32,000 bases of DNA. Origin: an uncultured Erysipelotrichaceae bacterium. Lineage in GTDB: Bacteria > Bacillota_I > Bacilli_A > Erysipelotrichales > Erysipelotrichaceae. The stretch's first letter is position 1. Each line of letters begins with the position of its first letter. Under the pieces are notes generated by a model. That model saw only the letters and a program-made list of their open reading frames with translations. It made no database searches and was not told the origin of the DNA. The position numbers and the translations under genes are program-made. This document shows, piece by piece, positions 7,201-28,398 of the stretch. The stretch covers positions 360,001 to 392,000 of the forward strand of contig OW818668.1 in the NCBI GenBank assembly GCA_942493105.1, given 5' to 3'.

Positions 7201-10200
7201 ACTTTCCTCCATACAATAATTCAGAAATCATATCTTGATAAAGCTCAAGTTCTGTTGAATCCAGATTTAGATATCTTGTTTCCATCTGACTTCTAACCTT
7301 AGCCAATCTAAAGGCACCATCGATTGCATCTGAAGTCGCATATTTATCAACAAGCGACATCATCAACTCTTCATTCTCACCGATGGCACATACAAATGAT
7401 AACTCACTGGTTTTACCTGCTTCGACCTTAAAACGAACACGATGACTCATGATTGGATCTAGGACTGGTCCTATTGTGTTGGATAAAGGTTTATTGTCGC
7501 TAAAGACGATCGGTGATTTAAGATCATGGCCTCGTCCGATCATTTGATTACGATCGGTTTCTATTTGGATGCTACCGATTGATTTTTCTTTTAATACGAC
7601 AGAATTTGCGATCCACATCTTTTTTTCTTTATCTGATCTAGGACGTCTCATCGCAACCAAACAATGTTTATCCGCATTATAATCTGTTTCTATGAAAAGA
7701 TTACTGAAAGCAGGATGAGCAACATCTGTTTTTTGTTCAGCTAAAACAAGTTCAAAATAACTGGTCAATTCCAATATGACAGGCAAATCACCATTATTCT
7801 TAATGCTTATTCTGCGAATCTCAACACTATCGCCTGTTGTAACCATGACTTCTGTCTTAGTATCGATCAACCCATCTTTACGCCAAAAGACAGCTCGATC
7901 TGATGTGAATGTGACTTTATAAGATTGAGGTAACACATTGAGTGGCGCATAGGTCGATGACCATAAAGCACCTGTCTCAATATTCTTTAGATAGAAGAAC
8001 ATTCCTAAAGGATCTAGTGTTTGATCTTCACGCCAACGACTTAACGCAATCATTTTATCTTTACTATAGCCTGTTCCACGATCAGTGACCATGATTGAAT
8101 AGTTACCATTGGTTAAGACATGGGCTTTAGGATAACCTTCTTGTGGGTCCACAAAGGTTCTTATGGTTGGTCTTTCTTTAACACGAGGCTCTTTCGCAAC
8201 AGTCACTTTTTCTTGATGAGACTTAGTGATGACAAGATTGGTTGGTACCTTTTCTTGAAGCAACATTCTTGCTGCATTCATTTCAGGATCACTATGAAAT
8301 CTGTTTTGCATTAGATTTCCATTGAGATAATTATCGATCGCAACCAAACTCATCCCTTGATGATGTGCCATAAAACTCTTAACTATGGTTCGTTTCGCCT
8401 CAAAAGTCAGACGTTCTTGGGTATAATCTGCAGCTTCATAGTAACCATAAGGACCATCTAATCCTTCTTCACTTAAGCGATGAAGATTTGCTATGGCACC
8501 TTTAGGATCAACCATCAAGGCTAAAAATGTTGCGTAAGGCGCTACGACCACATCTTCAACCAAACCGCGTTTTAAACCCAACCATGGGATCCCTATGGCT
8601 TTATACTGATACTCAAGATTCATTCCTAGAGCACTAAATCCAGATTCAGAAGTACCCCAAGGAGTTTCTCTTTGTTTCGCATATTTCTTTTGACTATTGA
8701 TCACAAAAGAATACGTTTCATCCAGTAACGTATGTTTATACGTCTTCATAATCAGTAAAGGCATCAAGTATTCAAACATCGTCCCAGTCCATGAGATCAA
8801 ACCTTTATGACGATCAACGATCGTTAAGACTCGACCCAACTTAAACCAATGAACAGGAAGCACTTCGCCTCTTGCGATACAGATATAACTGGTTTGTCTG
8901 GCTTCAGAAGTTAATAAATCATAATATGAATTGGTTTGTTTATTTTCAGAAATGTTGAATCCAATTGAAAACAATTGCTTCTTAGAATCATATAAAGGAA
9001 CAAACGTCATCTCATCTAATAATTTCCCGATCCTTTGAATCAAGGTTTCTATAAATAAAGCTTGGTGTTGTAAGCGAAGATCAGTTTCATCTAATGTTTT
9101 AGCTAATTTCTGACACCAATCCAACAGTTCATATGGTTCTGATTTTGATGACTTAAGATCTTCAATGAGTTGAGCTAACAGTAGCTGAGCTTGTTGATGA
9201 TTAACTAAGAGTTGTTTCAAAGAATCATTTCCAGAAAGAAGCTTTATCAACCGATTCACTGACTCAAGAAGAGAAAGTTCAAATGGATCTGTTAAGTTGG
9301 TGTTTGGACACTTTTCTAGCAATATAAGCTCTGGTCTATAGTCAATCAATTCATGTTTAAAGCGTTGAATCATTACGTCTACTTTCATCATCCAAATTGG
9401 TTTCTTATTGAGTGGTATTTTTTCAATTTCACCTAACGTGTTAAGCAGTTGACTCCATTGGTTTAGATCAAAAGTTAGAGATAAAGACTGGGAATAAGCC
9501 TTCAGTTTTGAAAGGTAATCTTGACCAGGTTTACCAGCACAGATCAATGTATCTTCGATCCCATCCACTATTCTACGATCCATAAGTGGTTCATCGAATG
9601 AAGCTTTAAGAGCTTGTTTAATGGTGATCAAGTATCCCGCAAGATTACCACTGTCAACAGTAGATACATAAAGTGGTTCCATGGGTTTAGCACTACTGGT
9701 GTCATACCAATTAAACAGATGTCCATTCCATTTGTCTAAACGCTCCATAGCTGTGATGGTTTTATCCATCAACTGACCCATATGGAATATACTAAAATAG
9801 CCTAAATCTTTAGCACTTAAAATAGCCATCAAATTTAAACCGATGTTGGTTGGAGATGATCGAGGTGCTAAACCAGTCGGCGGATCCACTTGATAGTTAT
9901 CAGGAATCAAATAATGATTGGCACTGTTTGAAAATTCTTCAAAATATCGCCATGTCTTTCTCGCCACTGACCGTAATTTAAGCAAATCAGGTCGCGATAT
10001 GATTTCATCTTTGGGTTCATGTTCAATACTGATCCAATAGGCTACAAAGGGAGCACAAGACCATACAATCATCACCAATAAACTTGCGATAAACATCTTT
10101 GGTTTTAAGAAATATGATAATAGCGGAATGATTGGGGCAATGATAAACGATGCCTTCATCTTTGAGATATAGCTACTGAGCGTATTCTTTTGAGAACGCT

Positions 10201-13066
10201 CTAAGTCTGCTGAAGTGACCCACTCTAATAGATTCTTACCTGTGATAAAGACTCTGATCAAAGTTATTCCAATGGCTTTAAGCATCAACACAGCTTGATA
10301 AGGAATGAATAAGATACCGATAAAGATCTGAAGTGCTTCGGCTTCAAGATCTTCAAAAACAGGTAGATATGATCGTAAACGAATCTTTGAATATCTTAAG
10401 GCAAGGAATTCTGTAAGGATATGGACTGTAAATGTAAAATATTGAATAAACAAGAAAAGTAAGATCCATATATAACCATTGCCTGGCAATACAGTAAACA
10501 TCATGATCACAAAGATCAATAAAGATGGGGAGACTAAACTACGTCTTAAGTTATCCCACATCTTCATCTTAGATAAAAGTGATAAAGGATTCTTAATGAG
10601 CTCTTTATTTCCGTTGATGATCTTATGATGCAAGAAAGGTAAAAGTTGCCAATCTCCTCTGACCCAACGATATAATCTCGCAGCATATGCATTGTATCGT
10701 GTTGGATTTGAATCTACCAAAGTCACATCTGTGATCAATCCACTTCTAACATAAGAACCTTCAAGTAAATCATGGCTTAATACCGCATTTTCAGGAATGG
10801 CATTCTTTAATACTTCTTCAAACACTTGTAGATCATAAATACCTTTGCCAGTAAAGCTGCCTTCTTTAAACAAATCTTGATAGACATCAGATACGGCATT
10901 GGTATAAGGATCGATGCCTTCTATACCTCCAAAGATGCGTGAAAATATCGAGAAGTTTTGATTCGCATTTTCAGTTTCGATCCTTGGTTGTAGTAAACCA
11001 TATCCTTCAGTCACGATATGTTTAATCGGATCGATGACAGGTCTGTTTAAAGGATGAGCCATAGCTCCAATCATCTTCTTTGCCATACCCATTGGTAAGA
11101 TTGAATCACTATCCAGGGTAATGATGTATTTGACATGTTCAAACGGAGGGTGATCACATGAAGAGTTGGCAAAATTATACTGAGAAGATCCAATGACCAT
11201 CTCATTAAACTCCATCAAAGCTCCTCGTTTACGTTCCCATCCGATCCACTTATCATTCTCATTGTTGAACTGACGATCACGATGAAAGAAGTAAAAGATA
11301 TCTTGACCATCTTTAGCATACAGTGCATTAAGCTTTTTAATGCCTTCCAGCGTTGTCTTTATGATGCCTGGATCAGAAATCTTATTGGCTTCATCCCAAT
11401 CACCATAGGCCCCAATCAAGACAAAGAAGAGATTTTTCTCTCGATTGGAAAGATAATGACGTTCTAGATTATTTAAAAGTTGATGAGCTCTTTTCTTATC
11501 TGACAACATCGTCGGTATCGCAACGATCGTACTGAATTCTGTTGGGATGCCTTCACGCAGTTCAAGTTTAGGAAATATATAAGGCTTAACTGTTTTAGTA
11601 ACGAGTCGATTGACAGATGCCAAACCAATCTCGGATGCAGGAATCATGACTGTGAGTCCGGCTATGATGGCCAAAATGAGTTGATTTGATATTGTTCGAT
11701 TGTAGGCATAAATTCCTGCCCCAATCATAAAGACCAGGGTAATCAGTATCATCGATCCTAGATACAAAACCCCAGCATGATGCGTCCAAAAATCAACCAA
11801 ACCAAAGCGTATTTTTTTCTTTTTGGCTTGCACCAGATGAAGATCTTTTACACCCTTGCCGATTAAGTAATATCCCACATGACAGGTCTTTAAATAGGCA
11901 GGATCATGATTCGTTGAGCTTTGAGCATAAGCTAATGTTGCCAGTTTGATGGCTTGTCTGGCAATGAATAATTCAGATACGCCATGCTTTAAGGCCAGTT
12001 CTTCGATCTCATTGCGATAAAGATTTCGTGTTTGTAAATCCATTAAAGGATAAGTACCATCCGGATCTTGTCTAAGGATCTGATCAACAAAACTGACAGC
12101 TTCAAACAATTCTGTCCAATCCATACTTGAGAAGTAGCGTAAACTTGTAAAACTATTGCCCATTAGAACCGTATTCATTGATTGAGCATTATGTTCTTTT
12201 TGTGTAACGGATAAAGTCGTTGTCCCAAGTTGAATCAATATTTCATCCATGATCTTCAAGACATCGACATAACTATGCGTCGATCTGCGTAAACGATAAA
12301 ACAAATGTTCAATAAACGATGAGTCTACTTCATCTGTCTTTAAAAGATTTTCACGAAGAGATTTCATGAAGCGATCTCTATCTTCACCTTCTTCATCTAA
12401 CCATTGATTAAAAACACCATCTGCTTGATGCCATTGATGAGTTGTCCGTTTGATGTCTTCACATAAGTGACGAACATTTTCAATCAATGCTAAACGTATC
12501 ACACCTGGTAAAGCCCAGATTTCTTTGTCCTGTAGGATGTGATGAGATTGATAGGCTTTAAGATACTCTGCCAAATTCTTTTCATCGACTTGACCATTGG
12601 TATGTCCAACCAGTTCAATCGCTACCGCAAAAATCCGTGAGTAACCCTTTAAAGGTCCTGAATTTAAAACAGGTAAAGACCGCATATCTTTCTTTGTTAA
12701 ATCACGACGCAAATTCTTTACTTGTTCTTCGATGATATAAAAATTATCCAGTAGCCATTCTGCTGACTCAGGAATCGCATGTTTCTTTTGAATCTCTTCA
12801 TTTAGACTTAGATACACTGAAAGGATGTAAGCAAAGTTATCATTCATTCTTGGGATTGGCCAGTTGCTCAATTTCATTGAGCGAGATACATTGTGTTCTA
12901 AAGCTGTTTTCTTAGCATGATCTTCAAGTCTCTCGCCCGAAAGCAGTGCATCATGCATATTGAGTTTACGGCCATTGATGTTTTTAGAGATGAGTAGTAC
13001 CGACAGCACAGCAACAAGCATGACTAAAACAACGCCTATAATGATTAAGCCAGTAAGAAGATCCAC
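4292..13066 (-). CDS. Cyclic beta-1,2-glucan synthase-like giant protein (N-terminal and central TM segments, GT84-like transferase, C-terminal GH94-like phosphorylase)
   Basis: 2,924 aa, GTG start at 13066-13064, preceded by the RBS GGAGAGG. There is a DxD-like TLDSDS and an RWVRGDWQ motif, as in Cgs/NdvB/ChvB transferase domains. Hydrophobic blocks occur around residues 430-480 and 830-1000. The C-terminal region carries GSGDWNDGMN, typical of GH94 (cellobiose/beta-1,2-oligoglucan phosphorylase family). Size and domain order match Brucella/Agrobacterium Cgs. Confidence 0.8.
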   Translation of the reverse strand: MDLLTGLIIIGVVLVMLVAVLSVLLISKNINGRKLNMHDALLSGERLEDHAKKTALEHNVSRSMKLSNWPIPRMNDNFAYILSVYLSLNEEIQKKHAIPESAEWLLDNFYIIEEQVKNLRRDLTKKDMRSLPVLNSGPLKGYSRIFAVAIELVGHTNGQVDEKNLAEYLKAYQSHHILQDKEIWALPGVIRLALIENVRHLCEDIKRTTHQWHQADGVFNQWLDEEGEDRDRFMKSLRENLLKTDEVDSSFIEHLFYRLRRSTHSYVDVLKIMDEILIQLGTTTLSVTQKEHNAQSMNTVLMGNSFTSLRYFSSMDWTELFEAVSFVDQILRQDPDGTYPLMDLQTRNLYRNEIEELALKHGVSELFIARQAIKLATLAYAQSSTNHDPAYLKTCHVGYYLIGKGVKDLHLVQAKKKKIRFGLVDFWTHHAGVLYLGSMILITLVFMIGAGIYAYNRTISNQLILAIIAGLTVMIPASEIGLASVNRLVTKTVKPYIFPKLELREGIPTEFSTIVAIPTMLSDKKRAHQLLNNLERHYLSNREKNLFFVLIGAYGDWDEANKISDPGIIKTTLEGIKKLNALYAKDGQDIFYFFHRDRQFNNENDKWIGWERKRGALMEFNEMVIGSSQYNFANSSCDHPPFEHVKYIITLDSDSILPMGMAKKMIGAMAHPLNRPVIDPIKHIVTEGYGLLQPRIETENANQNFSIFSRIFGGIEGIDPYTNAVSDVYQDLFKEGSFTGKGIYDLQVFEEVLKNAIPENAVLSHDLLEGSYVRSGLITDVTLVDSNPTRYNAYAARLYRWVRGDWQLLPFLHHKIINGNKELIKNPLSLLSKMKMWDNLRRSLVSPSLLIFVIMMFTVLPGNGYIWILLFLFIQYFTFTVHILTEFLALRYSKIRLRSYLPVFEDLEAEALQIFIGILFIPYQAVLMLKAIGITLIRVFITGKNLLEWVTSADLERSQKNTLSSYISKMKASFIIAPIIPLLSYFLKPKMFIASLLVMIVWSCAPFVAYWISIEHEPKDEIISRPDLLKLRSVARKTWRYFEEFSNSANHYLIPDNYQVDPPTGLAPRSSPTNIGLNLMAILSAKDLGYFSIFHMGQLMDKTITAMERLDKWNGHLFNWYDTSSAKPMEPLYVSTVDSGNLAGYLITIKQALKASFDEPLMDRRIVDGIEDTLICAGKPGQDYLSKLKAYSQSLSLTFDLNQWSQLLNTLGEIEKIPLNKKPIWMMKVDVMIQRFKHELIDYRPELILLEKCPNTNLTDPFELSLLESVNRLIKLLSGNDSLKQLLVNHQQAQLLLAQLIEDLKSSKSEPYELLDWCQKLAKTLDETDLRLQHQALFIETLIQRIGKLLDEMTFVPLYDSKKQLFSIGFNISENKQTNSYYDLLTSEARQTSYICIARGEVLPVHWFKLGRVLTIVDRHKGLISWTGTMFEYLMPLLIMKTYKHTLLDETYSFVINSQKKYAKQRETPWGTSESGFSALGMNLEYQYKAIGIPWLGLKRGLVEDVVVAPYATFLALMVDPKGAIANLHRLSEEGLDGPYGYYEAADYTQERLTFEAKRTIVKSFMAHHQGMSLVAIDNYLNGNLMQNRFHSDPEMNAARMLLQEKVPTNLVITKSHQEKVTVAKEPRVKERPTIRTFVDPQEGYPKAHVLTNGNYSIMVTDRGTGYSKDKMIALSRWREDQTLDPLGMFFYLKNIETGALWSSTYAPLNVLPQSYKVTFTSDRAVFWRKDGLIDTKTEVMVTTGDSVEIRRISIKNNGDLPVILELTSYFELVLAEQKTDVAHPAFSNLFIETDYNADKHCLVAMRRPRSDKEKKMWIANSVVLKEKSIGSIQIETDRNQMIGRGHDLKSPIVFSDNKPLSNTIGPVLDPIMSHRVRFKVEAGKTSELSFVCAIGENEELMMSLVDKYATSDAIDGAFRLAKVRSQMETRYLNLDSTELELYQDMISELLYGGKSRIEQMAILKMNTRGQSDLWKYGISGDRAQVLVVLSKTNKTQILNEILKAHDYWRLMDLKVDLIILSDEDYSYTNPLYQIIVDIVQSSTTNENQNQVKDIFILDKNKVQPEDISLLYASSRVILIGDGRTMKEQVMKFDQEPLLQLKKPLRTSIQYEPNLLKIPNLILDNGIGGFSQEGHEYVIHLKKGQNTPAPWINVIANPLFGFLISESGSSTTWADNSHESKITPWSNDAVSDTPGEILYLHDDETDETWTTTALPIREDEAYLVTHGFGYSIFEHTSHGIKQRSTVFVSKNESIKLNIVNLKNVSDQRRSLSLTLVIKPILGDSDQNNHLMVKTRLIDQNILILENPQNVSFIDKKVFMDVSEISRSWSTDRKAFFGSGGLVSPDCLSESQLSGKVGAGFDICGALQVKVTLDPNESKEIVFMMGVASTDDEAIHLCQNYRKEGKATEAFTLVKSFWRDKLNQIQVETPSMSMDLMLNGWLQYQTIACRLWARSGFYQSGGATGFRDQLQDSLSIAHLWPELTRKQILLHATHQYLEGDVQHWWHDPQGVGVRTRISDDLLWLPYVSCEYNRISGDDSIWDENVGFISGPPLSDAEDDRYSQPEVSHIKASLYHHCILAIDKASRFGQHGLPLMGSGDWNDGMNRVGHKGKGESVWLAWFLITVLDQFIPICNQKNDHEQAKKYEQIKKQLKNSVEQEGWDGKWYRRAYFDNGQVLGSNQNAECKIDSIAQSWAVISKAGDPIRAQTALKSLEDYLIDRENGLIRLLTPPFNSDEFEPGYIKGYLPGVRENGGQYTHAAAWAIIAFAQMGQGNKALENYDLINPINHTGHFRDYSRYKVEPYVMAADVYSVYPHNGKGGWTWYTGSSGWMIRAGLENILGFKKIGQSLLIDPCIPTYWDSYKMTYNYKTATYNIKVENPDHLNKGVKKIFVDGKLIAGQQISLNDDGKTHDVSVIMGAQKLNSQ

Positions 13067-14273: not shown

Positions 14274-14342
14274 GTTTAATGTCGAAGAAAGTAATATCAA
14301 GAATATTTTCTAAAGTAAGGTTCATTTTAATGCATAACTATT

Positions 14343-14376
14343 AAAAGCTGATTCTATCAATGAGTCAGCTTTTTAT
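14343..14376 (+). terminator. Rho-independent terminator of the YggT-like gene
   Basis: Stem aaagctga (14344-14351) pairs with tcagcttt (14364-14371), and a T-run follows (ttttat). Confidence 0.6.
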
Positions 14377-14500
14377 CAATCAAATAGAATATGCAAAGTT
14401 TCATATTTTTTGCACTCATATCAATTGAACCCAAGATAATTCTTACCTAAATTCATGATAATTCAAAGGTTATTTATAGACATTCAAGACCAAATCAATT

Positions 14501-14540
14501 AAAAAGAGCCAACTCCAATCATTGTCGGTAGTTAGCTCTT
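14501..14540 (-). terminator. Putative rho-independent terminator closing the minus-strand island genes
   Basis: aagagccaact and agttagctctt form an 11-bp stem with one mismatch. On the minus strand a T-run follows (complement of aaaaa at 14501-14505). It lies about 370 nt downstream of the Mrr-like gene. Confidence 0.45.
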
Positions 14541-14906
14541 AAGTACAACCTTTTATTTCTCTGTCACACATAATCAGTCAGATTCAAAAAAGGTTTGATC
14601 TCTATGGTGCGCGTGAAGGGAGGGCAATTAGTTGGGAAATAGATTGCGGTATAGTGCTTAAAACTGCCTAAATCCGCTATTTAACTACCAATATTGTACT
14701 CTATTGCGGTGTGTTTTCGTACATTTTTTTGGAAATGGGGGAATTTTGGGGGAATCCAAAAATTCGTAATAAACAAAGATTTATGCCAATTAATTCCTAT
14801 AGCTAATTCTTTCAGATCCAATGTACCAAGATGATATTTTACCGAGAGGCTTCGGCTTACTCAACACACCCCAATAAATTGGCCATTCTTTTCCATTGTG
14901 GAACGA

Positions 14907-15527
14907 CTAATTCATTCTTAGAAACTCTCCAAGAGATAAATTCGTGTTAGTCAAGTATGAACAAGTTATACCTGATCCGGAATTTGTTTGCATTACTCCT
15001 ATGTATTTATCACCCTCTATATAAGGTGTACGAGGACTATTCATAATCACATTCAACCGAGAACGAGTTTGGTATTCTGGACCAGATTCGGTTAACTGGA
15101 TTAATGCGATGCCATGAATTGATGCAAATTTTATTGCACCGGATTGAAAGTTTGAGGAAGAAATTAATATTCCTTTATTTACACCGCAAGCTCTAATTTT
15201 ATCATAAAGTACCTGTACTTTTTCTCTCGTTATACTGGTCTTATAGTGCTTACACTCAATAATCGTCTTGTACTTCACACCCATAATTTCAAATTCTATA
15301 TACCCGTCAATCTGATAGTTTCCGTCTCCAACTTCGATTATCTTATTATGTATAACCTTAATATTCTGGAGTCCTTTAATTTGAGTTTCTAAAATTCCGA
15401 TTGCATATTTTTCAAACTCAATTGGACTCATCTCGATATTTACTTCTAATGTTGGAATAAACATAACACCCTCCGCAAGTTCATTTTTTTCTCGACTAGT
15501 TTTCAAATAATAGTTACATCTTTTCAT
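14907..15527 (-). CDS. Mrr-like (Mrr_cat) restriction endonuclease-fold protein
   Basis: Core QIDGYIEFEIMGVKYKTIIECKHYKTSITREKVQVLYDKIRACGVNKGILISSSNFQSGAIKFA matches the Mrr catalytic pattern D...(E/Q)xK followed by a 'gifitts.F' strand. I prefer the start at MKRCNYY (ATG 15527-15525) with RBS GAGGA 5 nt upstream; the ORF track start is 15587. Confidence 0.7.
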   Translation of the reverse strand: MKRCNYYLKTSREKNELAEGVMFIPTLEVNIEMSPIEFEKYAIGILETQIKGLQNIKVIHNKIIEVGDGNYQIDGYIEFEIMGVKYKTIIECKHYKTSITREKVQVLYDKIRACGVNKGILISSSNFQSGAIKFASIHGIALIQLTESGPEYQTRSRLNVIMNSPRTPYIEGDKYIGVMQTNSGSGITCSYLTNTNLSLGEFLRMN

Positions 15528-15725
15528 ATGATCCTCTACTAGATTCGATTCTGGAATATGAAGTGAGGATGTGTGAATCATATTCATTGCTCAACAAGGA
15601 ATATCTTAGAAATGTGTCCCGCTCTCTTTTTCTTAATTCGCGGTGCTATTACAATATTTAGACTTTTCATCTAGTTCTAATGTAAACACTTTGGGTTAAC
15701 AATTCGTAAATATATTGGAAAAAGC

Positions 15726-16460
15726 TCAGGTTTTCAAATTACCTTTTAAATACGAATAAACCCAGAAAAGAAAAAGTCCAATTAATATACTTGAAAGTGT
15801 GCCTATCAGATATTTGGATCGAAAGTTTTTTTCTGATGAATCATTTTTGCCATTATCAAATTGCCCATATCTAACCATAGTTTTTGCAGCTACAAGGAAG
15901 CCTATTCCACTAATATTTCCAAAAATACCAAGCATAAATACCATAGTACGCTCAAGGATACCAATCAACGCTCCTTCGTCCTCAAAACTAAATCCACTTT
16001 TACTTTGCGTTGTATTTACGATACATACTAGTTTATCGACCAATATACTCGAGGGCATTATAAGATACGAGAAAACTACAGTAAGAAGCAAAATTTGGTT
16101 GATTTCACTACCTTGACCGTTCTCACAGTATAATTTGTATGCAATCAAAAACAAAACTGTTATATGAAGTAATTGATCAATAACAAAAACAATGAACTTT
16201 CTAAAGTTGATTTTCTTAGTAATTTTCTTACTAACAAAAATGCTACAAGTATCTATGATTGAGTGAGATAGAAAAATACAAACTGCAAAGATGGCTACAT
16301 AACTCGATTTAGTAAAAGTAACCAATACAATAGTTTGAATTACCGTGTAAATACAAATATGTCTTAAAAGGCTTTTCTCCTTTTTCTCAGCCATATCGTT
16401 TGACTGGAAATAGAAGTCGCCAAGTGAATGTCCGAACAATAATGCAATTAGGATATTCAT
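15726..16460 (-). CDS. DUF3307/SatE-like polytopic membrane protein
   Basis: 244 aa with about 7 hydrophobic segments. It has the N-terminal LLFGHSLGDFYFQ motif and a later GALIGILER...AAKTMVRY motif that I associate with DUF3307. Its ATG overlaps the SatD-like stop by 4 nt (ATGA at 16457-16460), indicating translational coupling. Confidence 0.6.
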   Translation of the reverse strand: MNILIALLFGHSLGDFYFQSNDMAEKKEKSLLRHICIYTVIQTIVLVTFTKSSYVAIFAVCIFLSHSIIDTCSIFVSKKITKKINFRKFIVFVIDQLLHITVLFLIAYKLYCENGQGSEINQILLLTVVFSYLIMPSSILVDKLVCIVNTTQSKSGFSFEDEGALIGILERTMVFMLGIFGNISGIGFLVAAKTMVRYGQFDNGKNDSSEKNFRSKYLIGTLSSILIGLFLFWVYSYLKGNLKT

Positions 16461-17329
16461 AAGTTAATCTCCTTTAATTGCAGTACAATCTCTGATACAT
16501 ACTTCCTCTCATCCGCAATGCTTTTCGAGTAGTATTTTTGGACATTTTGTCTTGTTGTATTAATTATATAGGCGATATCTTCGGGTACACCTCTAAGCAC
16601 AAATGATGAATTACCTAGATTATATTTTCTCTCTTTTGTTAAATCTAGAATAGAGAATGCTTCATGTTCTCCTATATCGATAATTGGTTGTTTCTTTAAA
16701 GTGTTTGGTTTCATTTCATTTTGTCTGGAATCATGATATGACATGAAAATGATCTCGTTTAATAGAGAAATTTCAATAGTATCTGCATTTTTTAGATAAT
16801 GTATGGTTCCATCTAGGGAAATTGGGTTTATCAATTCATTAATTAATGATATTTGCAGAGATCTTGAACCCCAAATTTGACGCAACTTAATATACATGTC
16901 AAACAACGTATTAATTGCCGATATTTGTATATCGTTTTTTGCAGTTGTTTCTAGTCTAATTGACTCGGCACGTTTATTACTTATAGTACTAATTGCATTT
17001 CTTGCATTATGATATGCTTGACCATCAAGTAAGTTTGAACTAAACCTATCGTCAATATAGTCCAATTGTCCAATGCCTATTCCTGCTCTAATTTTTGTTG
17101 GATACATTAACATTTGAATAATTCTCAAATACAGGAATGCTGCATCTGGGGTATTAAATAATCCTTGAAAAGAGTCTCCGGATGATATTTCAACTTTCTT
17201 TACTAATTGTTCTCTATAGCACTTGTTTAGAAAATCTATTACTATAACTAATTTTTTCTGAACCTCATATCTGTTCTCTGTTTTTCTAGATTGAACAATA
17301 TCAGCTAATAACACCGTTTTCTCGATCAT
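16457..17329 (-). CDS. SatD-like protein: N-terminal nucleotidyl-cyclase-like signature, C-terminal HTH-like segment
   Basis: 290 aa. The N-terminus VLLADIVQSRK ...(about 40 aa)... SSGDSFQGLF mirrors the two metal-binding Asp strands of class III cyclase/GGDEF folds (FxDIxGFT ... GDxY). The C-terminus PEDIAYIINTTRQNVQKYYSKS looks like a helix-turn-helix. The SatD family name is recalled from the S. mutans sat locus, where satD sits next to satE. Confidence 0.55.
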   Translation of the reverse strand: MIEKTVLLADIVQSRKTENRYEVQKKLVIVIDFLNKCYREQLVKKVEISSGDSFQGLFNTPDAAFLYLRIIQMLMYPTKIRAGIGIGQLDYIDDRFSSNLLDGQAYHNARNAISTISNKRAESIRLETTAKNDIQISAINTLFDMYIKLRQIWGSRSLQISLINELINPISLDGTIHYLKNADTIEISLLNEIIFMSYHDSRQNEMKPNTLKKQPIIDIGEHEAFSILDLTKERKYNLGNSSFVLRGVPEDIAYIINTTRQNVQKYYSKSIADERKYVSEIVLQLKEINL

Positions 17330-17347
17330 AACTTTTCTCCTAATATT

Positions 17348-17376
17348 ACTATATAATTATGTCGAAAATAAAGCAA
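17348..17376 (-). promoter_or_regulatory. Putative sigma-A promoter of the SatD-like operon
   Basis: On the minus strand: -35 TTGCTT (17376-17371), 17-nt spacer, -10 TATAGT (17353-17348). The RBS AGGAG and the ATG at 17329 follow. The -35 lies inside repeat copy 1. Confidence 0.5.
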
Positions 17377-17481
17377 CCATTTTAGGTTGCTTTATGATAT
17401 AGCAACTATTATTGGTTGCTTTGTGATATAGCAACTATTATTGGTTGCTTTGTGATATAGCAACTATTATTGGTTGACTAA
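17366..17481. repeat. Four tandem 29-bp direct repeats, each carrying the inverted repeat AGCAAC-N8-GTTGCT (candidate operator array)
   Basis: AGCAAC starts at 17372, 17401, 17430 and 17459, an exact 29-bp period. The two central copies are identical (tgatatagcaactattattggttgctttg). Copy 1 has a longer stem, aaagcaacc/ggttgcttt. Copy 4 is altered in its right arm (ggttgAct). Confidence 0.9.
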
Positions 17482-17501
17482 TTATAAAAGCAATATATGA
17501 T
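17474..17501 (+). promoter_or_regulatory. Putative sigma-A promoter of the SIR2-like gene
   Basis: -35 TTGACT (17474-17479), 16-nt spacer, -10 TATGAT (17496-17501). The -35 is created by the diverged right arm of repeat copy 4. Confidence 0.5.
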
Positions 17502-17612
17502 TAATCTGAGTGGTCTGTGACTAATAGCCAGTTAGTAAAATTAACAGAATATCTACCTAAACAGATATGGTTTAGATAATAATATTTGGAAATCCCGAAA
17601 GGATAAAATAGA

Positions 17613-18611
17613 TTGAACAAATTTGATGGATTGTTGTTTGGAAATGGCCTATCGATTTGCTTACTTGATCAGCTGAAAGTACACATCCCAGAAAATAAAA
17701 GGTATCTTTTTAATATCAATGATTTCCTAAAGTTACTTGCGAAAAACGGATTAAACAAAAGAGAAGATAACAAAGTTTTTAGCTCATTTTATAACAAATC
17801 AGACTCTTTCAGTTACAAAAATTATGTGAAGTTAAAGTCGAATCTAACTTTGTATTTTATGAACCATGATGCTGATTTTGAACTACACTTCGGATCAGAT
17901 TTGTTTCAAACTAAAGAATGCGATTATGATTTTGAACTTCTAAAAACACTCACCCCTTTTCTATATAACATTTGGCATCAAATACTACTTGATTACATTA
18001 TGAGTTTAGGGTTGGATATGAAGATGAAGGTATTTATGAACTGTGTTAAAGATTCCCTATATTCTAACCCGAGCATCTTCACCACTAACTTTGATAGATT
18101 CGCCGAAATTTTAGAACCACAACATTTGCACGGTAGATTCGTATATCCATACAAATACTTGAAAGATCTTGAACTATGTCAAATTGATGTGAATACGTTC
18201 TATTATAAATGTATTTGGGGTTGGAATGGTATTGGTAAATATAACATGATTAATGAAGTAATGCGTTTCCCTGATTTTAAAAATCATTTTGATTTTGATT
18301 TTTTTTATCAAAATGAACTTAATATAAATCACTTATTGATTTATGGAATAGGATTCAAAAAATCAGGTTATATAGACAAAATATCGATGGTAAATCCCAT
18401 GTATAAAGAACCTGTTATTGGTGGTATCATTGACGAACATATATTATTAAGAATAAAGAGTTTACAAACTCAAAAAATGTTACATAGAATTACATTTGCT
18501 TATTATAACGAAGATGATTTATTGCATTACAAAAGCCTGACAAAACTATTTGAACTAAGACAAGTAGAGTACGTTAAGTCGACTGAGTTTAAATATTCAG
18601 TAAGTTTATAG
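17613..18611 (+). CDS. Stand-alone SIR2-like (DUF4917-like) protein, candidate NADase effector
   Basis: 332 aa, TTG start with AAAGGA upstream. It has the N-terminal glycine loop LLFGNGLSI (compare sirtuin GAGIS). IFTTNFD (residues 155-161, nt 18075-18095) parallels TQNID/TTNYD. HLHG (residues 171-174, nt 18123-18134) parallels the sirtuin catalytic-His motif ELHG. Confidence 0.55.
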   Translation: MNKFDGLLFGNGLSICLLDQLKVHIPENKRYLFNINDFLKLLAKNGLNKREDNKVFSSFYNKSDSFSYKNYVKLKSNLTLYFMNHDADFELHFGSDLFQTKECDYDFELLKTLTPFLYNIWHQILLDYIMSLGLDMKMKVFMNCVKDSLYSNPSIFTTNFDRFAEILEPQHLHGRFVYPYKYLKDLELCQIDVNTFYYKCIWGWNGIGKYNMINEVMRFPDFKNHFDFDFFYQNELNINHLLIYGIGFKKSGYIDKISMVNPMYKEPVIGGIIDEHILLRIKSLQTQKMLHRITFAYYNEDDLLHYKSLTKLFELRQVEYVKSTEFKYSVSL

Positions 18612-19071
18612 TTATAAAGATTCATATATTTTTCGAAATATTCCATGAGAAAATAGAAAGAATTAATAGATGTGGCAGAATAAGTGTGCTATGTTCAGGA
18701 AATATTGGTTACCCACACAACAGTTCTGACTCTACATTTTTATTGATCCTTAGTGATAAATCACAAGTTAATGAATTCTGACTTGTTGTAAAAGCAACAT
18801 AAAGACTGATTTTAAAATTGCATAGCGTCCATCCAGTAAAATAAAATAAAATCTCACACCGAATCTTTGTATCAATATATCTCTTTCTTATTTTCTGAAT
18901 TTACAGGTTCCTATTCTACCTGCCCAGTTTAGTTTAGCCAATTCATTGTTTTTCAACTAAAGTCAACCTTTTCCATTCTCTGACAAAAACTCTACTCCCT
19001 TATAAGTTGGGATTAAAGTGAGACAGAATACCTAAAGAAAGAATACAGGATTTTCAAATTGCCTTGAAGGG

Positions 19072-20310
19072 CTAATCTTTAGATAAAATGTTCTCAGATA
19101 TATAATCAACTTGCTTAAAAATCTCAACCAGTACATTTACAACAATACTGTTTCCAACTAATCGAATTAGTTTTTCTCTGGTAAAAAAGGAGGAATTTCT
19201 TCTTGTCATATAATCATTGTCTATTAGAGCTTGATAATCTTTCTCATCGAATCCCATGAGTAAAAAGCACTCTCTTGGTGTTAAATTTCTGTATGGAGAC
19301 TTCTTTATTGAGTCGGAACTAAATGCGACTAGTCCTGAATTTGGGTTTCTATCTTGTTTTGTTGTTATTGTATTTACATGTTTAACTTTAAACATTTCGC
19401 CATCATAAATCATAATATTTTCATTCATGATCTTTCTTCTTGAAGGAGTATCGTTTGGATTACTCCAGTCTGCTTCTTTTTTATATTTCGAAATCGAATA
19501 ATCAAGTTTTAGAAAATTTTCCAAATTTGGTAAATTGTTGTCAACTACTTTTTCCAAATTATGTCTGTCAAAGTATCTCTTAATTAGCTTTTTTTCACCT
19601 TTCCTCTTTGCTAAAACACTCAGCATAAAAGTCCTTTTCCTATTTTGTGGAATTCCAAAATTCGTAGCGGATAATGTATATAGTTGATTATGATAACCCA
19701 CGCCTTCAAGATAATTTTTCCACTCTTCAAAGCTTTCTGAATGAATATTCGAAAGTATATTAGTGACATTCTCCATAAGTAGAAATTTAGGTAACTTAGC
19801 ATTAGTATTAACTAGTTCCATAAGTAACCTTTCAACTTCCCAAAGTAGACTTGACCTATTATTTGAGTTACGATTAATGCCTGATACGTTACCATGCCAT
19901 CTACCTGATATGGATAAATCTTGACATGGAAATGAGTATGTTAATAGATCAATATTTCGCGGAAGATCCTCAGCATTAATATCTTTGATACTTACCAAAT
20001 TTCTACTTCTCTGTATTGCAATGTAGACCCTTCTAAGAGTTTCAATTGGTAACTTATTTAGAGAATCTTTCTTTATTGGAACTTTCCCATTGTTACTTAG
20101 AGTATATTTATGTAAATTCGAGACGAGTTCTTTCTTAGTCAGATTAGCAAAAAGACTTGGATTTTGCGGTCCATTGTGGATGATATCGTATGCATAAATG
20201 GCTCCGATATCCCACTCAACTGTTGCCACAATTTCATGTTCAATCCCTAGAGTTTTTAATGCTTTTGCTTGGCTTCCTATCCCACTGAACATTTCCACTA
20301 CTCTAAGCAT
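19072..20310 (-). CDS. dcm: DNA (cytosine-5)-methyltransferase
   Basis: 412 aa with all the key C5-MTase motifs: I VEMFSGIGS, IV SFPCQDLS, VI LLMENV, VIII QNRKRTF and X GNSIVV. RBS GAGGT lies upstream. It is the last gene of the five-gene operon. Confidence 0.9.
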   Translation of the reverse strand: MLRVVEMFSGIGSQAKALKTLGIEHEIVATVEWDIGAIYAYDIIHNGPQNPSLFANLTKKELVSNLHKYTLSNNGKVPIKKDSLNKLPIETLRRVYIAIQRSRNLVSIKDINAEDLPRNIDLLTYSFPCQDLSISGRWHGNVSGINRNSNNRSSLLWEVERLLMELVNTNAKLPKFLLMENVTNILSNIHSESFEEWKNYLEGVGYHNQLYTLSATNFGIPQNRKRTFMLSVLAKRKGEKKLIKRYFDRHNLEKVVDNNLPNLENFLKLDYSISKYKKEADWSNPNDTPSRRKIMNENIMIYDGEMFKVKHVNTITTKQDRNPNSGLVAFSSDSIKKSPYRNLTPRECFLLMGFDEKDYQALIDNDYMTRRNSSFFTREKLIRLVGNSIVVNVLVEIFKQVDYISENILSKD

Positions 20311-20327
20311 TATTTACCTCGCATTAA

Positions 20328-22403
20328 TTATTTTGGAAAGGCTTCTATTCTTAACCGCTCCAATATTTCAATTATCTTCTTACATTGACTTTCTGACGGA
20401 AAGCGACCCTTTTCTATAGCTATTGCAGCCCCTATGAAACTCTTATCTGTGATTGATAGTAACGATCTATCGGATCCCCAGTTAAGTAAAAACTTCCAAT
20501 TCTCAGGACCAAAACTGTGCACTTGTAACATATAATCAATATTTTTATCCTGCTTCATAATATCTTTGGCATCTTTTTTATCTTCAACAACACTGCTTTT
20601 GTAAATCAAATCATTAACAAATTGTGGTTGGAGTATAACTTTTATTGATTTTGCACTATTCCAACAGCCTTCCCTTTTTGCCCATTCAGTAACGTTTTCA
20701 ACTTCCCTATCATCACTTACTAGATGATTGTACATTAGTTCAGATATATTCTCAATTTGTTTTATCCAACTAGATGGCAATTTTTGTAGTTGCCATATAG
20801 TTTTGTAAGGTATTGATCTTTCAGGATACTGTCTTTCAATTGTGTATATTAGTTTTGATATAGTATAAGCTACAATATTTGCTTTGTAACTGTTCTTAAA
20901 CCAGGTCTGTAATTTGACAATTTTATCTGTTTCTTTAAACATAATAGCCATACAGATAACTCTACGGTAATAATCTTCATTAAATTCTATATCACTTTTC
21001 CCCCATTGGCTTGTTACACTGTCGGCAAATTTAGAGAATGATTTTTGGCCACCCGCACTTGCAATATGAGGTAACATCTCATAAATGTTCATAAATTTTG
21101 CCAAATCAATTTTTTTGAACATCTGGTTCTTCGGGTTAGCCATTTCAAATTTATTTCTTTCCGAAATAGAAGATTTATATGTCTCTTGCTGATACTGACC
21201 ATTCGCTCTTTCATAATACCAAGATGTCCCATATTGTCTACCTTCGGTTGCCGGTGCCTTTATCCTTCGAGAGAAGTTCTCCATGCGAATATGAAAGGGA
21301 TGATTTGACCAAAGATCTGAATCACTAACCTTATTTTGCGAGTTTGCATATCTAGATATTTCTGGTATTAAAAGCACTGCCTTTTCATGATTAACAATAG
21401 AAAGCTTCATTGGTACTGAAATTTGCGCTATTTTATTCTCAGAATCTTCTTTTTTATCATTTAAGAGAGCCATTGCTAAAGATGCAGTTGTTTGACCACC
21501 ATTGACTATTTGTAATGCAGTAATTTTAATTATATGTGGGATTCCGTCTATAAAACTCATTTCGACATTACTAGCTGTTGCTGCAATCCCATTATTATAA
21601 GCAAAAAATAGAGTCGGATTATTCAAAATTGTATTCCTTATTCCTTTATTGACCTTACCTTTTGTTTGAAGGAAGGATCTAACATTACCTTCAAGTAAAC
21701 GTCCACCAAATTTATTGTAAATTGTTGCGAGTAATTGACCAGGAATATTGCATAGATAAGCTTCGTAATCCTCAGTCTTGCTTGCCATTAAGCACGGAAC
21801 ACCATTTGTACCATATTCCCTTAAGTCGATAATTACATCCTCTTTCACAACCCCAGATTCGGCTAAATTATATATTCTCTCAGTGTCCCATATATGATAT
21901 TCAACTATTTTTCCGTTTATAGTTCCTTGTTCAAGTCGTTTAATTTGCTTACTCATAACCATATCAGTAAAAAGAAAAATGCGATACTTTTTTACTATGC
22001 TATATTTTTTGGTTATATCATACGCAAGCCCATATCCAGGAGCACTTTCTTCTGCATTCTCGAGTATCATATCTGCATCTTCAATAAAAGAAACTGCCTT
22101 ATTAAAACTTTTATCAGCTTCCGTTGATGTTAAAGTTTCACCACTAAAATCAGTTAAAGAGGGGCCAATAAATAATGATAATACATCATCGAATTCATCA
22201 TAAGTATATCCATCAATCTGAATTTTCCTTCTATTCTTGCCAATTCCCTCAAATGGCAAATATTCAAAACTTTCAATTTCTTCACTATCCATTAAAGTTT
22301 CAGAATAGTTTTTAAAAAATGCCTCTCTTGTTGATATCAGTTCCGAAGCAGCATCCACCTTTATTTGCTCAAAAACATACTCACAATATTCTTTAATATT
22401 CAC
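20328..22403 (-). CDS. AIPR (abortive-infection phage-resistance) family protein
   Basis: 691 aa, GTG start with RBS AAGAGGTGG. The central NNGIAATA ... QIVNGGQTTASL motif is characteristic of AIPR/DGQHR-type proteins. Confidence 0.75.
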   Translation of the reverse strand: MNIKEYCEYVFEQIKVDAASELISTREAFFKNYSETLMDSEEIESFEYLPFEGIGKNRRKIQIDGYTYDEFDDVLSLFIGPSLTDFSGETLTSTEADKSFNKAVSFIEDADMILENAEESAPGYGLAYDITKKYSIVKKYRIFLFTDMVMSKQIKRLEQGTINGKIVEYHIWDTERIYNLAESGVVKEDVIIDLREYGTNGVPCLMASKTEDYEAYLCNIPGQLLATIYNKFGGRLLEGNVRSFLQTKGKVNKGIRNTILNNPTLFFAYNNGIAATASNVEMSFIDGIPHIIKITALQIVNGGQTTASLAMALLNDKKEDSENKIAQISVPMKLSIVNHEKAVLLIPEISRYANSQNKVSDSDLWSNHPFHIRMENFSRRIKAPATEGRQYGTSWYYERANGQYQQETYKSSISERNKFEMANPKNQMFKKIDLAKFMNIYEMLPHIASAGGQKSFSKFADSVTSQWGKSDIEFNEDYYRRVICMAIMFKETDKIVKLQTWFKNSYKANIVAYTISKLIYTIERQYPERSIPYKTIWQLQKLPSSWIKQIENISELMYNHLVSDDREVENVTEWAKREGCWNSAKSIKVILQPQFVNDLIYKSSVVEDKKDAKDIMKQDKNIDYMLQVHSFGPENWKFLLNWGSDRSLLSITDKSFIGAAIAIEKGRFPSESQCKKIIEILERLRIEAFPK

Positions 22404-22442
22404 TTTCCACCTCTTTCAAAGTTTTTCATTAATAAAAGCAGT

Positions 22443-23360
22443 CTATTTTTTAAATCGTATGATTTCATTTATTGACAATTCATATTTTGCACTTAGGACA
22501 GCTATAGGTACTTGAGTTCTTCGCATGCACGGGAAATCTCTATTAACAGTATATTCAACAAAACAACTATACCTAAATGGTTTTTCATCGTACTCTCTAC
22601 TAGCATAGTACTTATGAAGTAGTAGAATTTCTTTAAATCTATCTTTTAGATTATCAGTAGGAATCTGAAGAAATATTTCACTTATTATCGAATTTAACGT
22701 TATCCCCGATTTATCTTCCTGGCTAGTTTTATCTAGATAAACAACAACTAAATTTCCATCAATATCCACATCAAGTTGCTCAATTGAAGATATCAAGACT
22801 TTTTCCGAACCTAGGGATGTAGCTTTTATCTCCCACCAGGTTTCTTCAGTAACAAAGTCTTGGTCAGCTCGTTCGGGACCAATCCAAGAATTTAACCCTT
22901 TCTCGTAACCGATCTCAACAAAAAGCTTATTCCTTAAGAAAATAAGCTCACCAATAAGGCCCTTAATCTCAGGAATTGTCAACAAATCTCCATTGTTCTT
23001 TAATAACATTTTTTGCCATTTTCTATACCTATCACAAAAGAATAGTACCCCTTCGTCATTAGATAAAACTTTTCTTGATGACTCTATCATGTCTTCACAA
23101 AAAGAGTAAAACATTTCTTCATAATTTTCTTGAAGCAAAGTAAGTGATAATGCCCATTTAGAGTCATGTCTCATTCCAATTTCAACTCCAATAAACTGAG
23201 AAGAATTAATATTTCTCGGTTCAATATCTGTAATTAAAAGAAGTGTCAGTCTTCTTGTTGAATCAAATCCAATATATAGATCGAGAATATGATTTTCATC
23301 GACACGCTGAAAGTTGTTTACTCCGAATAGTCCATTAAATCTATATGCAATAGTTTCCAT
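22443..23360 (-). CDS. PD-(D/E)XK motif nuclease-fold protein
   Basis: 305 aa. GLIGELIFL ... ERADQDFV-x9-WWEIKATS gives an E...D...ExK arrangement. The ATG overlaps the upstream stop (TAATG at 23358-23362). This protein type is the usual partner of Z1 and AIPR genes. Confidence 0.65.
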   Translation of the reverse strand: METIAYRFNGLFGVNNFQRVDENHILDLYIGFDSTRRLTLLLITDIEPRNINSSQFIGVEIGMRHDSKWALSLTLLQENYEEMFYSFCEDMIESSRKVLSNDEGVLFFCDRYRKWQKMLLKNNGDLLTIPEIKGLIGELIFLRNKLFVEIGYEKGLNSWIGPERADQDFVTEETWWEIKATSLGSEKVLISSIEQLDVDIDGNLVVVYLDKTSQEDKSGITLNSIISEIFLQIPTDNLKDRFKEILLLHKYYASREYDEKPFRYSCFVEYTVNRDFPCMRRTQVPIAVLSAKYELSINEIIRFKK

Positions 23361-27584: not shown

Positions 27585-28019
27585 CTTTCCCCCTATTATC
27601 TTACTTAATGTTTTGATCAAAATGTTATTCAATTAGTCTTAGAATTACTTATATGTTTTATCGAAACTCCTAGATTTAGTTTAAACTTTTAAACATCTTT
27701 TAATTGCATTTAGAAATTACGGATTATGTAAATCATCTTTGTCCTTTATATTCTAAGATAGGGGGATGCAGATATAAAGTTGGCTCCTTTCTTTAAGTGT
27801 CCGGCTTTATATCCGCATCTCCTTGCAACTCAATTCGTTCTTATCTGTTTTATTGTTTGTCATTTTCTACCTTGTTTAATACTAATCTGTAAATTTTATT
27901 AAAAATAATAATGTACACATTTCAGGACTTTATAGTATCAATTACAGTTTTTCACCGTTCTAGTAAAGAGATTATAGTCAAATTATAATTAATAATCTGG
28001 TTTCTTCATTTAAAGATTT

Positions 28020-28341: not shown

Positions 28342-28398
28342 ATTTTTACCTCTTTGCCACATTATACAACTTTTATTTGCCAAAACTAATATTTATTG

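Follow-up and report, generated by a model that had tools for sequence, protein, structure and literature searches.

In Streptococcus mutans, SatD and SatE have been associated with acid tolerance. We analyzed a satD locus in a 32,000-nucleotide (nt) stretch of DNA from an uncultured Erysipelotrichaceae bacterium (GenBank contig OW818668.1, positions 360,001 to 392,000; hereafter the window). In the window, satD is followed by a gene for a DUF3307 membrane protein (satE-like) and by a gene for an Mrr-type nuclease, and a gene for a 332-residue protein with SIR2-like motifs is transcribed divergently from satD (Table 1). As in the S. mutans sat locus, satD comes first and the coupled membrane gene follows, and both Pfam families match. 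However, the two genes of the window (satDE) are not located beside ffh/ylxM, and SatD of the window has an insert of approximately 75 residues between its palm domain and its helix-turn-helix (HTH). An earlier reading of the DNA, made from its letters alone (the sequence-only reading), had taken three or four of these genes as one defence regulon. Our comparison of the locus with its relatives indicates that the region quite probably consists of a satD-satE operon with its own operator, an Mrr_cat nuclease present in this lineage only, and a rare 332-residue enzyme. The four genes are, in our judgment, likely to be neighbors by accident and to represent three independently inherited units, not one module.

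The individual parts of the locus resemble other described systems. Like Pycsar PycC and Panoptes OptS, SatD has a palm domain (class III cyclases, E = 2e-5; GGDEF, OptS, and Cas10 more weakly), two invariant acidic residues, and a membrane partner. Unlike them, SatD has no cyclase match in Pfam, is fused to an HTH, and is tied to its own operator array, while SatE has no recognizable sensor domain and satDE are found mostly in housekeeping contexts; the likeness concerns a possible mechanism and not family membership. MetJ and the omega/ParR-type proteins are repressors that bind phased tandem operators cooperatively. In a general-knowledge comparison, the SatD array is alike in having identical phased sites over the promoter, with a copy number varying from 2 to 5 between strains. 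It differs because a 20-bp palindrome and a 9-bp spacer add up to 29 bp, which is a non-integral number of helical turns, and because the presumed binder is a palm-domain–HTH fusion. The 332-residue protein shares the motifs GxG, TTN[FY]D, and HG, in the same order, with ThsA, DSR2, FAM118B, and Campylobacter jejuni SliP (SIR2_2/DUF4917), and its gene likewise stands alone, in defence or mobile surroundings. However, it contains a 135-residue all-helical insert between strands 1 and 2 and has no sensor domain (SLOG, TPR), and its Asn-to-His spacing is 14 residues compared with approximately 40 in ThsA. The nuclease has the Mrr_cat domain with the D...ExK signature of Type IV Mrr enzymes, but it is only approximately 185 residues long, has no Mrr_N domain, and matches mREase_IV weakly.

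Co-occurrence of the four genes

The four open reading frames (ORFs) of the sequence-only reading are all present (Table 1). The satD and DUF3307 genes overlap by 4 nt at an ATGA (the sequence reads ...AACTTATGAATATCC, with AAAGGAG upstream), and a homologue of the partner gene follows satD in every locus examined. They are a genuine translationally coupled pair, as had been proposed. The sequence-only reading had recognized the combination as no named system; PADLOC-DB v2 gives no match for SatD, the DUF3307 protein, or the 332-residue protein, and only weak matches for the Mrr protein. The Pfam matches of SatD, DUF3307, and Mrr_cat all exceed the curated cut-offs.

The combination itself was not found again. 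Loci with the SIR2-like gene were collected from four genomic contexts by exact-protein look-ups and from 28 metagenome loci, and none of these 32 other loci contained SatD, DUF3307, or Mrr (tblastn, E ≤ 1e-2). The SatD comparison set comprised 15 distinct other loci from Bacillota, Bacteroidota, Fusobacteriota, Alphaproteobacteria, and haloarchaea. The SIR2-like gene was absent from all 15; tblastn did not detect it in loci L005–L019, and none was annotated in L049–L052. Four near-identical relatives (L005–L008) keep the order satD-DUF3307-Mrr without a SIR2-like gene. When the window was aligned with the sister strain L005 by blastn, only 14908–17508 was common to both (L005:7822–10426; 2.6 kb, 88.7% nucleotide identity), and both flanks differed. 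Therefore, the SIR2-like gene and the Dcm and MZA-like operon lie outside the common block. By eye, the upstream flank in L005 resembles a C-terminal remnant of an IS3-type transposase. In relatives at 49–55% identity, satD is accompanied by the DUF3307 gene only, and the pair adjoins deoC/PTS (phosphotransferase system) genes or genes for HAD hydrolases, radC, mreC, or polA; it is located downstream of deoC in several Erysipelotrichaceae genomes. With no conserved co-occurrence, mostly housekeeping contexts of satDE, and no support from Pfam or Foldseek for a SIR2 fold, the proposal of a 3–4-gene defence regulon had to be abandoned. Adjacency and a common intergenic region are not evidence of a defence module here, and a false lead is thus removed.

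Probable operator array upstream of satD

The 283-bp divergent region between satD and the SIR2-like gene contains a single array, which was detected by Tandem Repeats Finder (TRF) at 17368–17476 (period 29, 3.8 copies, 93% matches, score 183). The four palindromes at 29-bp spacing, and the −35 boxes within the outer repeats, were correctly seen in the sequence-only reading. In the whole window, the palindrome was matched seven times with at most two mismatches, compared with 0.78 expected, and none of 100 shuffled sequences reached seven. Beyond the array, the window contains only chance-level two-mismatch matches at 4139, 7718, and 22350, and the palindrome scan found no operator site upstream of the Mrr gene.

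The array is a conserved companion of satD. Palindromes of 20 bp are located upstream of satD in every SatD locus examined, and where there are several, they are spaced by 28–29 bp, with one 47-bp gap in Halorientalis/Haloplanus. Lactobacillales are among the lineages with such phased palindromes. In the Erysipelotrichaceae, GCAAC-N8-GTTGC is present upstream of satD in 13/13 loci (7 distinct contexts), in 1–5 perfect copies or 2–5 copies when one mismatch is allowed, with a spacing of exactly 29 bp between neighbors. The nearest palindrome starts 60–65 nt before the satD ATG. In all eight Erysipelotrichaceae loci compared for layout, its right half provides the TTGC of the −35 box, followed by 17 nt and a TATAAT-like −10 box. 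An unbiased autocorrelation analysis of the 260-nt regions preceding satD ranked a period of 29 first in 12 of the 13 loci. The loci from Natronosalvus and Sphingomonas were obtained after the spacing rule had been formulated, so they provided a prospective test of the rule; their palindromes are spaced by 29 and 28 bp, respectively. The array is kept upstream of satD whichever gene lies opposite. On the Halorientalis and Haloplanus plasmids (L049 and L050), only 2 nt separate the end of the last palindrome from the start codon.

The half-site differs between lineages, and the predicted recognition helix of the SatD HTH varies with it. T[ST]RQNVQKY and VSRQSIEKA are found with GCAA, LLQPAISKS with ATTCC, and VSKSTVSES with GTTCG. 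Because the palindromes are co-conserved with satD and the half-site covaries with the HTH, SatD probably binds the array and autoregulates the operon. SatD is thus the presumed autorepressor of the operon that encodes it and its membrane partner, and the array its presumed site of self-regulation. The sequence-only reading had proposed that one DNA-binding factor acts on the array for both arms. A single factor, presumably SatD, is consistent with our comparison; however, the array is tied to satD only. The operator rule, namely 20-bp palindromes phased at 28–29 bp across two domains of life, looks new, and the searchable literature on SatD contained nothing on a cyclase-like fold, an HTH, or a phased operator array. 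The rule and the covariation of half-site and HTH make operator prediction and binding experiments straightforward.

The outer repeat on the other side of the array contains the −35 box of an outward promoter-like site, which is the best candidate for the promoter of the SIR2-like gene in this strain. Overall, this AT-rich region shows no excess of promoter-like sites (22 found, 26.9 expected). The equivalent site in L005 (TTGCTT-16-TATGAT) is followed by no gene. Therefore, SatD might repress the SIR2-like gene incidentally in this strain, and transcription of that gene from the outward site in repeat 4 may occur here by accident of adjacency.

Table 1. Coordinates of features in the window and of SatD operator arrays at other loci. 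Positions without a locus prefix refer to the window.
Feature	Position	Strand	Description
SatD operator array (predicted)	17368–17478		four 20-bp palindromes AGCAAC-N8-GTTGCT, period 29 bp
Palindromes 1–3	17372–17391, 17401–17420, 17430–17449		perfect
Palindrome 4	17459–17478		degenerate (two mismatches, ends GTTGAC)
Predicted satD promoter	17348–17376	-	−35 TTGCTT 17376–17371 (right half of palindrome 1), 17-nt spacer, −10 TATAGT 17353–17348
satD ribosome binding site	17341–17337	-	AGGAG, precedes satD ATG
Outward promoter-like site	17474–17501	+	TTGACT 17474–17479, 16-nt spacer, TATGAT 17496–17501; 10/12 match; −35 in degenerate repeat 4
satD	16457–17329	-	290 aa; palm domain ~aa 1–130, C-terminal HTH ~aa 247–289
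satE-like polytopic membrane gene	15726–16460	-	N-terminal DUF3307 and conserved C-terminal membrane domain
SatE C-terminal domain (window) and candidate counterparts	15726–16150; L051:3163–3579; L052:3102–3551		
Mrr nuclease gene	14907–15464	-	stand-alone Mrr_cat PD-(D/E)XK nuclease, likely 185 aa; longest ORF 14907–15587
Orphan gene	17613–18611	+	332-aa enzyme-like protein, possibly SIR2-like; TTG start
Block	19072–27632	-	absent beside satD in L005
Array, Vaginisenegalia			TATTCC-N8-GGAATA, 4 copies, 29 bp, TRF 100% matches
Array, Bacteroidales			TATAAC-N8-GTTATA, 3 copies, 29 bp
Array, Halorientalis/Haloplanus (haloarchaeal plasmids)			GTTCG-N10-CGAAC, 4 copies, 29, 47, 29 bp
Array, Natronosalvus			TACAACC-N6-GGTTGTA, 2 copies, 29 bp
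Array, Sphingomonas			TTAGCCC-N6-GGGCTAA-like, 3 copies, 28 bp
Array, Fusobacterium			AGCAAT-N8-GTTGCT, 1 copy and a degenerate copy 29 bp upstream
Array coordinates elsewhere	L018:5811–5917; L019:5861–5938; L049:2841–2965; L051:2405–2480; L052:2402–2450; L048:2899–2947		

SatD

SatD of the window matches the Pfam family SatD (PF16264) with an E-value of 1.4e-20 (74.2 bits, cut-off 29). The AlphaFold2 (AF2) model has a mean predicted local distance difference test (pLDDT) score of 63, and the N-terminal 130 residues reach approximately 80. A Foldseek search of the model against the PDB gave 26 matches with E ≤ 1e-3, all of which were catalytic domains of class III adenylyl/guanylyl cyclases. 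The best match was Rv1900c (1ybt; E = 2e-5, probability 1.0, target-normalized TM-score 0.54), and GGDEF, GTP cyclohydrolase III, the Panoptes mCpol OptS, and Cas10 palm domains appeared lower in the list. The cyclase-like model of the N-terminal domain and the C-terminal HTH make SatD a palm-domain/HTH fusion. SatD has no Guanylate_cyc match in Pfam, and nothing in the PDB matched when the SatD alignment served as a search profile; the link between the folds comes from the model only.

From Bacillota to haloarchaea, the invariant residues are D10 (in ADI), G51-D52 (in GDSFQ), G83/G85/G87, and D102-G103. In the model, D10 and D52 are placed on strand 1 and the GD hairpin, respectively, at what appear to be the positions of the cyclase metal ligands. 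Binding or turnover of a Mg-nucleotide by the palm domain may tune DNA binding, as the invariance of the Asp pair suggests.

In Streptococcus pyogenes, satD is an accessory gene that is present in 71% of genomes, yet it is essential in every transposon sequencing (Tn-seq) data set (PMC11323703). A gene that represses or counteracts a harmful neighbor would be expected to behave in this way. A tblastn search of SatD against phages gave no match, and SatD is not carried by any phage or typical mobile plasmid searched. The Bacteroidales satD (L019:5992–6685) is split into two overlapping ORFs of 90 and 184 codons, which may represent a frameshift, a pseudogene, or an assembly error.

The membrane partner

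The Pfam domain DUF3307 (PF11750; 3.8e-19) covers only residues 3–110 of the satE-like product, which contains approximately 6–7 hydrophobic segments. Its N-terminal half matches phrog_2470, annotated as "membrane protein", and short DUF3307 proteins occur in phages. No recognized nucleotide-sensor domain was detected in SatE by searches of Pfam, PHROGs, or the PDB.

The pair of satD and a membrane gene is also present in Vaginisenegalia, Bacteroidales, Fusobacterium, and haloarchaeal megaplasmids; on the megaplasmids, the two genes again overlap by 4 nt. On the Natronosalvus and Sphingomonas plasmids, the gene after satD encodes only 138–149 residues. The Natronosalvus partner (149 residues) corresponds to the C-terminal domain alone and aligns with the DUF3307 protein of the window over the C-terminal half of the latter (BLASTP, 1e-5). 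The Sphingomonas partner (138 residues) matches weakly (E = 0.03), and the order of its motifs is the same. Therefore, what is conserved as the partner of SatD seems to be the C-terminal membrane domain, which lies outside Pfam DUF3307 and is characterized by the motif G-x-[LW]-IG-x-[LFM]-E-[RN] ... AAK[ST] ... Y[LF]xG[TS]L.

The Mrr nuclease

The Mrr gene is located on the same strand after the DUF3307 gene, as had been described, and its product matches Mrr_cat (1.6e-13, 51.2 bits, cut-off 21) with the D...ECK signature in QIDGY...IIECKHY. The gap of 138 nt between the two genes needed correction: the most likely start is M42 (ATG at 15464, preceded by GGAGG), which gives a protein of 185 residues as in the relatives and a gap of 261 nt. 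In Pfam, the protein has no N-terminal winged-helix reader (Mrr_N), and besides Mrr_cat only a sub-threshold NA-iREase1 match was found. In PADLOC, it gave a weak, partial match to mREase_IV (8e-7) and a weak match to PDC-S02.

The Mrr gene follows satDE only in the near-identical relatives L005–L008, in which SatD is 95.5% identical. The stretch between satE and the Mrr gene contains no terminator-like site and no operator, and the Mrr gene has a promoter-like site of its own.

The 332-residue orphan

The 332-residue protein belongs to a small family. It has 65 homologues in a set of 5.8 billion proteins, none of which has a Pfam domain or is informatively named, and a search of 1.84 billion cluster representatives with the family profile collected only 140 matches, many of them fragments, and reached no annotated family. 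The protein itself has no match in Pfam, NCBIfam, PADLOC, or PHROGs. In an alignment of 57 members, E90, Y118, N119, W121, T157, T158, N159, D161, G174, K209, D274, and H276 are invariant, and G10, N11, G12, H171, and H173 are at least 90% conserved. The many invariant polar residues are consistent with an enzyme. The AF2 model is confident (pLDDT 93.9, predicted template modeling score [pTM] 0.91) and shows an alpha/beta core split by a 135-residue helical insert, with the SIR2-type motifs at the ends of predicted strands.

The motifs GNGLS, TTNFD, and HLHG, from which the sequence-only reading had assigned the protein to the SIR2-like proteins, are present and conserved, whereas the SIR2 fold received no support from Pfam hidden Markov models (HMMs) or Foldseek. 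The protein of the window matched none of the HMMs for SIR2_2 (PF13289), DUF4917 (PF16263), and SIR2 (PF02146), even at E ≤ 10. Among the 57 members, SIR2_2 was found in two (best E 0.043) and DUF4917 in none, and among the distant family members SIR2 was found in one protein only (E = 0.21). Foldseek gave nothing better than E = 0.08 for the model in the PDB and BFVD; the best PDB matches were Rossmann fragments of 45–50 residues from methyltransferases. A PDB profile search with the family returned only the SIR2-like FAM118B, at a sub-threshold E of 0.3, through TTNFD and HxHG. Comparison by hhalign with a 116-sequence ThsA SIR2 profile, whose seed sequence was checked against 6LHX, gave a probability of 36.6%, or 48% without the helical insert, compared with 0.1–0.3% for unrelated controls. 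This weak alignment pairs GNG with GAG, TTNFD with TTNYD, and YGxGF with FxGFSF in the same order; with the single ThsA sequence, the family profile aligned TTNFD alone.

We consider that the protein is rather likely to be akin to SIR2, and it is probably a very divergent SIR2-type protein that binds nicotinamide adenine dinucleotide (NAD). The alternative, a new fold or family with another activity whose GNG/TTNFD/HxHG likeness is convergent, is a real possibility, although it is not the one that we favor. It would account for a confident model with no close match in the PDB or BFVD, for the near-complete silence of the SIR2_2 and DUF4917 models, and for a profile search that stays inside a family of approximately 140 representatives. 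Moreover, E90, Y118, N119, W121, K209, D274, and H276 are invariant residues with no SIR2 counterpart. However, the order of motifs and secondary structure elements matches SIR2_2 (strand-GxG, strand-TTN[FY]D, HG, strand-[FY]GxGF), the hhalign alignment to ThsA places three motifs in order far above the controls, and the best meaningful PDB sequence match, weak as it is, is a SIR2-like protein.

The gene contexts of the homologues make a stand-alone role in defence or addiction plausible. Their neighbors include mobile functions (MobC, relaxase, T4 coupling protein, serine and tyrosine recombinases) and defence-type genes (a Type III restriction-modification system, PDC-S31/DUF2971, PDC-S15/FRG, and a caspase-like protein), with occasional housekeeping flanks (gatCAB, rarA). 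In searches by tblastn against plasmids and phages, the 332-residue protein had no match, nor did scanning the viral contigs of IMG/VR reveal a relative. A rare family of approximately 330 residues on mobile and defence islands, with no annotation and no Foldseek neighbor in the PDB or BFVD, is a reasonable single-gene candidate for phage-defence screens.

In two unrelated loci (L033:6037–9007 and L001:8001–10581), a defence-type gene comes directly after the homologue in the same orientation. In the former case it encodes an FRG/PDC-S15 protein and overlaps by 14 nt; in the latter it lies 17 nt downstream and encodes a caspase-like Peptidase_C14 protein. Members of the family may at times act as a unit with a second gene. 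An 86-residue upstream ORF was considered as an obligate partner and rejected, as it occurs in only one set of loci that share neighbors and is absent from the window.

Proposed mechanism and alternative explanations

In the mechanism that we propose, SatD would bind as dimers to the 20-bp palindromes that recur every 29 bp. The nearest palindrome overlaps the −35 box of satD; SatD bound there would therefore repress its own operon, and this would limit the coupled synthesis of the membrane protein. The fixed phase of 29 bp (approximately 2.76 helical turns) implies cooperative, geometry-dependent contacts between neighboring dimers. The stand-alone Mrr_cat nuclease would have been added downstream in this lineage only. 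The gene for the 332-residue protein lies at the edge of the Dcm and MZA-like island and would move independently on mobile elements and in defence islands; in this strain, its transcription may start from the outward promoter of repeat 4, a wiring that would not be a conserved design. The gene families, the array, its conservation, the lack of co-occurrence, and the fold of SatD are results of the analysis; binding and repression by SatD, its control by a ligand, and the NADase or defence role of the orphan are inferred. With this mechanism, SatD/SatE, a widespread pair that has hardly been studied, has a concrete and testable model for the first time.

Several points weigh against this interpretation. 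The −35 box of the predicted satD promoter matches the consensus at only 3 of 6 positions, which is under the threshold of the promoter scan, so that the promoter was not called and its assignment relies on inference and conservation. The outward promoter-like site is strong (10/12) and lies 112 nt upstream of the start of the SIR2-like gene; therefore, local co-regulation by SatD is conceivable. The presumed link between SatD and the operator is one of co-conservation and covariation in about seven lineages, and the SatD model is only moderately confident, with pLDDT values of approximately 50–65 in the HTH region. The SIR2 assignment is weak, with no PDB match at E < 0.5 despite a pLDDT of 94 and an hhalign value of 37–48%. 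Finally, the flanks of the satDE-Mrr block differ in two close relatives; therefore, the block may lie in, or be, a variable island, and it may be located in a recombination hot spot or be mobile.

By analogy with Pycsar and Panoptes, satD-satE, with or without the Mrr gene, could be a toxin-antitoxin-like or abortive-infection pair of a small cyclase and a membrane effector, in which a nucleotide made or bound by SatD would keep SatE silent or inactive and loss or inactivation of SatD would unleash a membrane-damaging SatE. The resemblance of the SatD palm to class III cyclases, GGDEF, and OptS, the invariant, putatively metal-binding Asp pair, and the tight coupling to a polytopic membrane protein in both Bacteria and Archaea speak for this idea. 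The accessory yet essential satD of S. pyogenes, the presence of the pair on haloarchaeal and Sphingomonas plasmids, and the short DUF3307 proteins of phages fit it as well. However, we consider it unlikely, because satDE adjoin deoC and housekeeping genes, the loci seen show no enrichment of the pair beside defence genes, PADLOC gives no match, SatD is found on no phage or typical mobile plasmid, SatE contains no recognizable nucleotide-binding domain, and the cyclase activity of SatD is only putative.

A broader version would make SatD-SatE an ancient nucleotide-signaling pair of Bacteria and Archaea. A DNA-bound, cyclase-type SatD would oligomerize on the 29-bp operators, and its product or its occupancy would both set satDE transcription and gate SatE; loss of SatD would unleash a lethal membrane activity, and a SIR2-type NADase would have been captured here through the outward promoter. 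If true, the lethal activity of SatE upon loss of SatD would account for the status of satD in S. pyogenes as an accessory gene that is nevertheless essential. We regard this version as speculative and distinctly unlikely.

The proposal of the sequence-only reading was that SatD, DUF3307, Mrr, and the SIR2-like protein form one multi-effector anti-phage regulon, with SatD as sensor or regulator and the array wiring both arms. Both promoter-like sites do overlap the outer repeats, the block adjoins the Dcm and MZA-like operon, SIR2-like homologues occur in defence and mobile contexts, and the whole stretch of 13–28 kb is low in G+C. Against this stand the zero co-occurrence among 32 SIR2-like and 15 distinct SatD loci, an array that follows satD regardless of the upstream neighbor, an Mrr gene that is confined to near-identical relatives and has no operator upstream, the housekeeping contexts of satDE, and PADLOC, which has no model for SatD, DUF3307, or the 332-residue protein; such a regulon is highly improbable. 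That the array serves an unlinked host factor, or functions as an iteron or a site of recombination, instead of being a SatD operator is hardly credible: the link to SatD is indirect, and tandem repeats of approximately 20–30 bp are typical of plasmid iterons, but the half-site varies by lineage and tracks the SatD HTH while the position upstream of satD, the geometry, and the 28–29-bp phase are constant, no replication or recombinase gene is consistently nearby, and the window contains no other copy of the array.

Borders of the block and other features of the window

A search for island boundaries found no tRNA or tmRNA genes, no Rfam match in 13–19.2 kb, and no convincing flanking direct repeats. 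Two non-coding stretches, 14274–14906 (approximately 630 bp) and 18612–19071 (approximately 460 bp), flank the block and contain no tRNA, Rfam match, or terminator-like site; the former holds a C-rich segment, cccccaaaattccccc.

Farther along the window, a divergent pair encodes an 86-residue Cro/C1-type HTH_26 protein (28123–28383, minus strand) and a 502-residue protein with five DUF4379 treble-clef zinc-finger repeats (28482–29990, plus strand). By eye, these repeats flank a DUF559/Vsr-type endonuclease-like segment, and the gene may be a defence-island gene beside the MZA-like operon. On the other side of the block, a minus-strand ORF of 2924 codons (4292–13066) encodes GH94 supersandwich, GH94 catalytic, and glucoamylase-like domains, as in a cyclic beta-1,2-glucan synthase-type protein, and it is preceded by genes for a LysR regulator and components of a sugar ATP-binding cassette (ABC) transporter.

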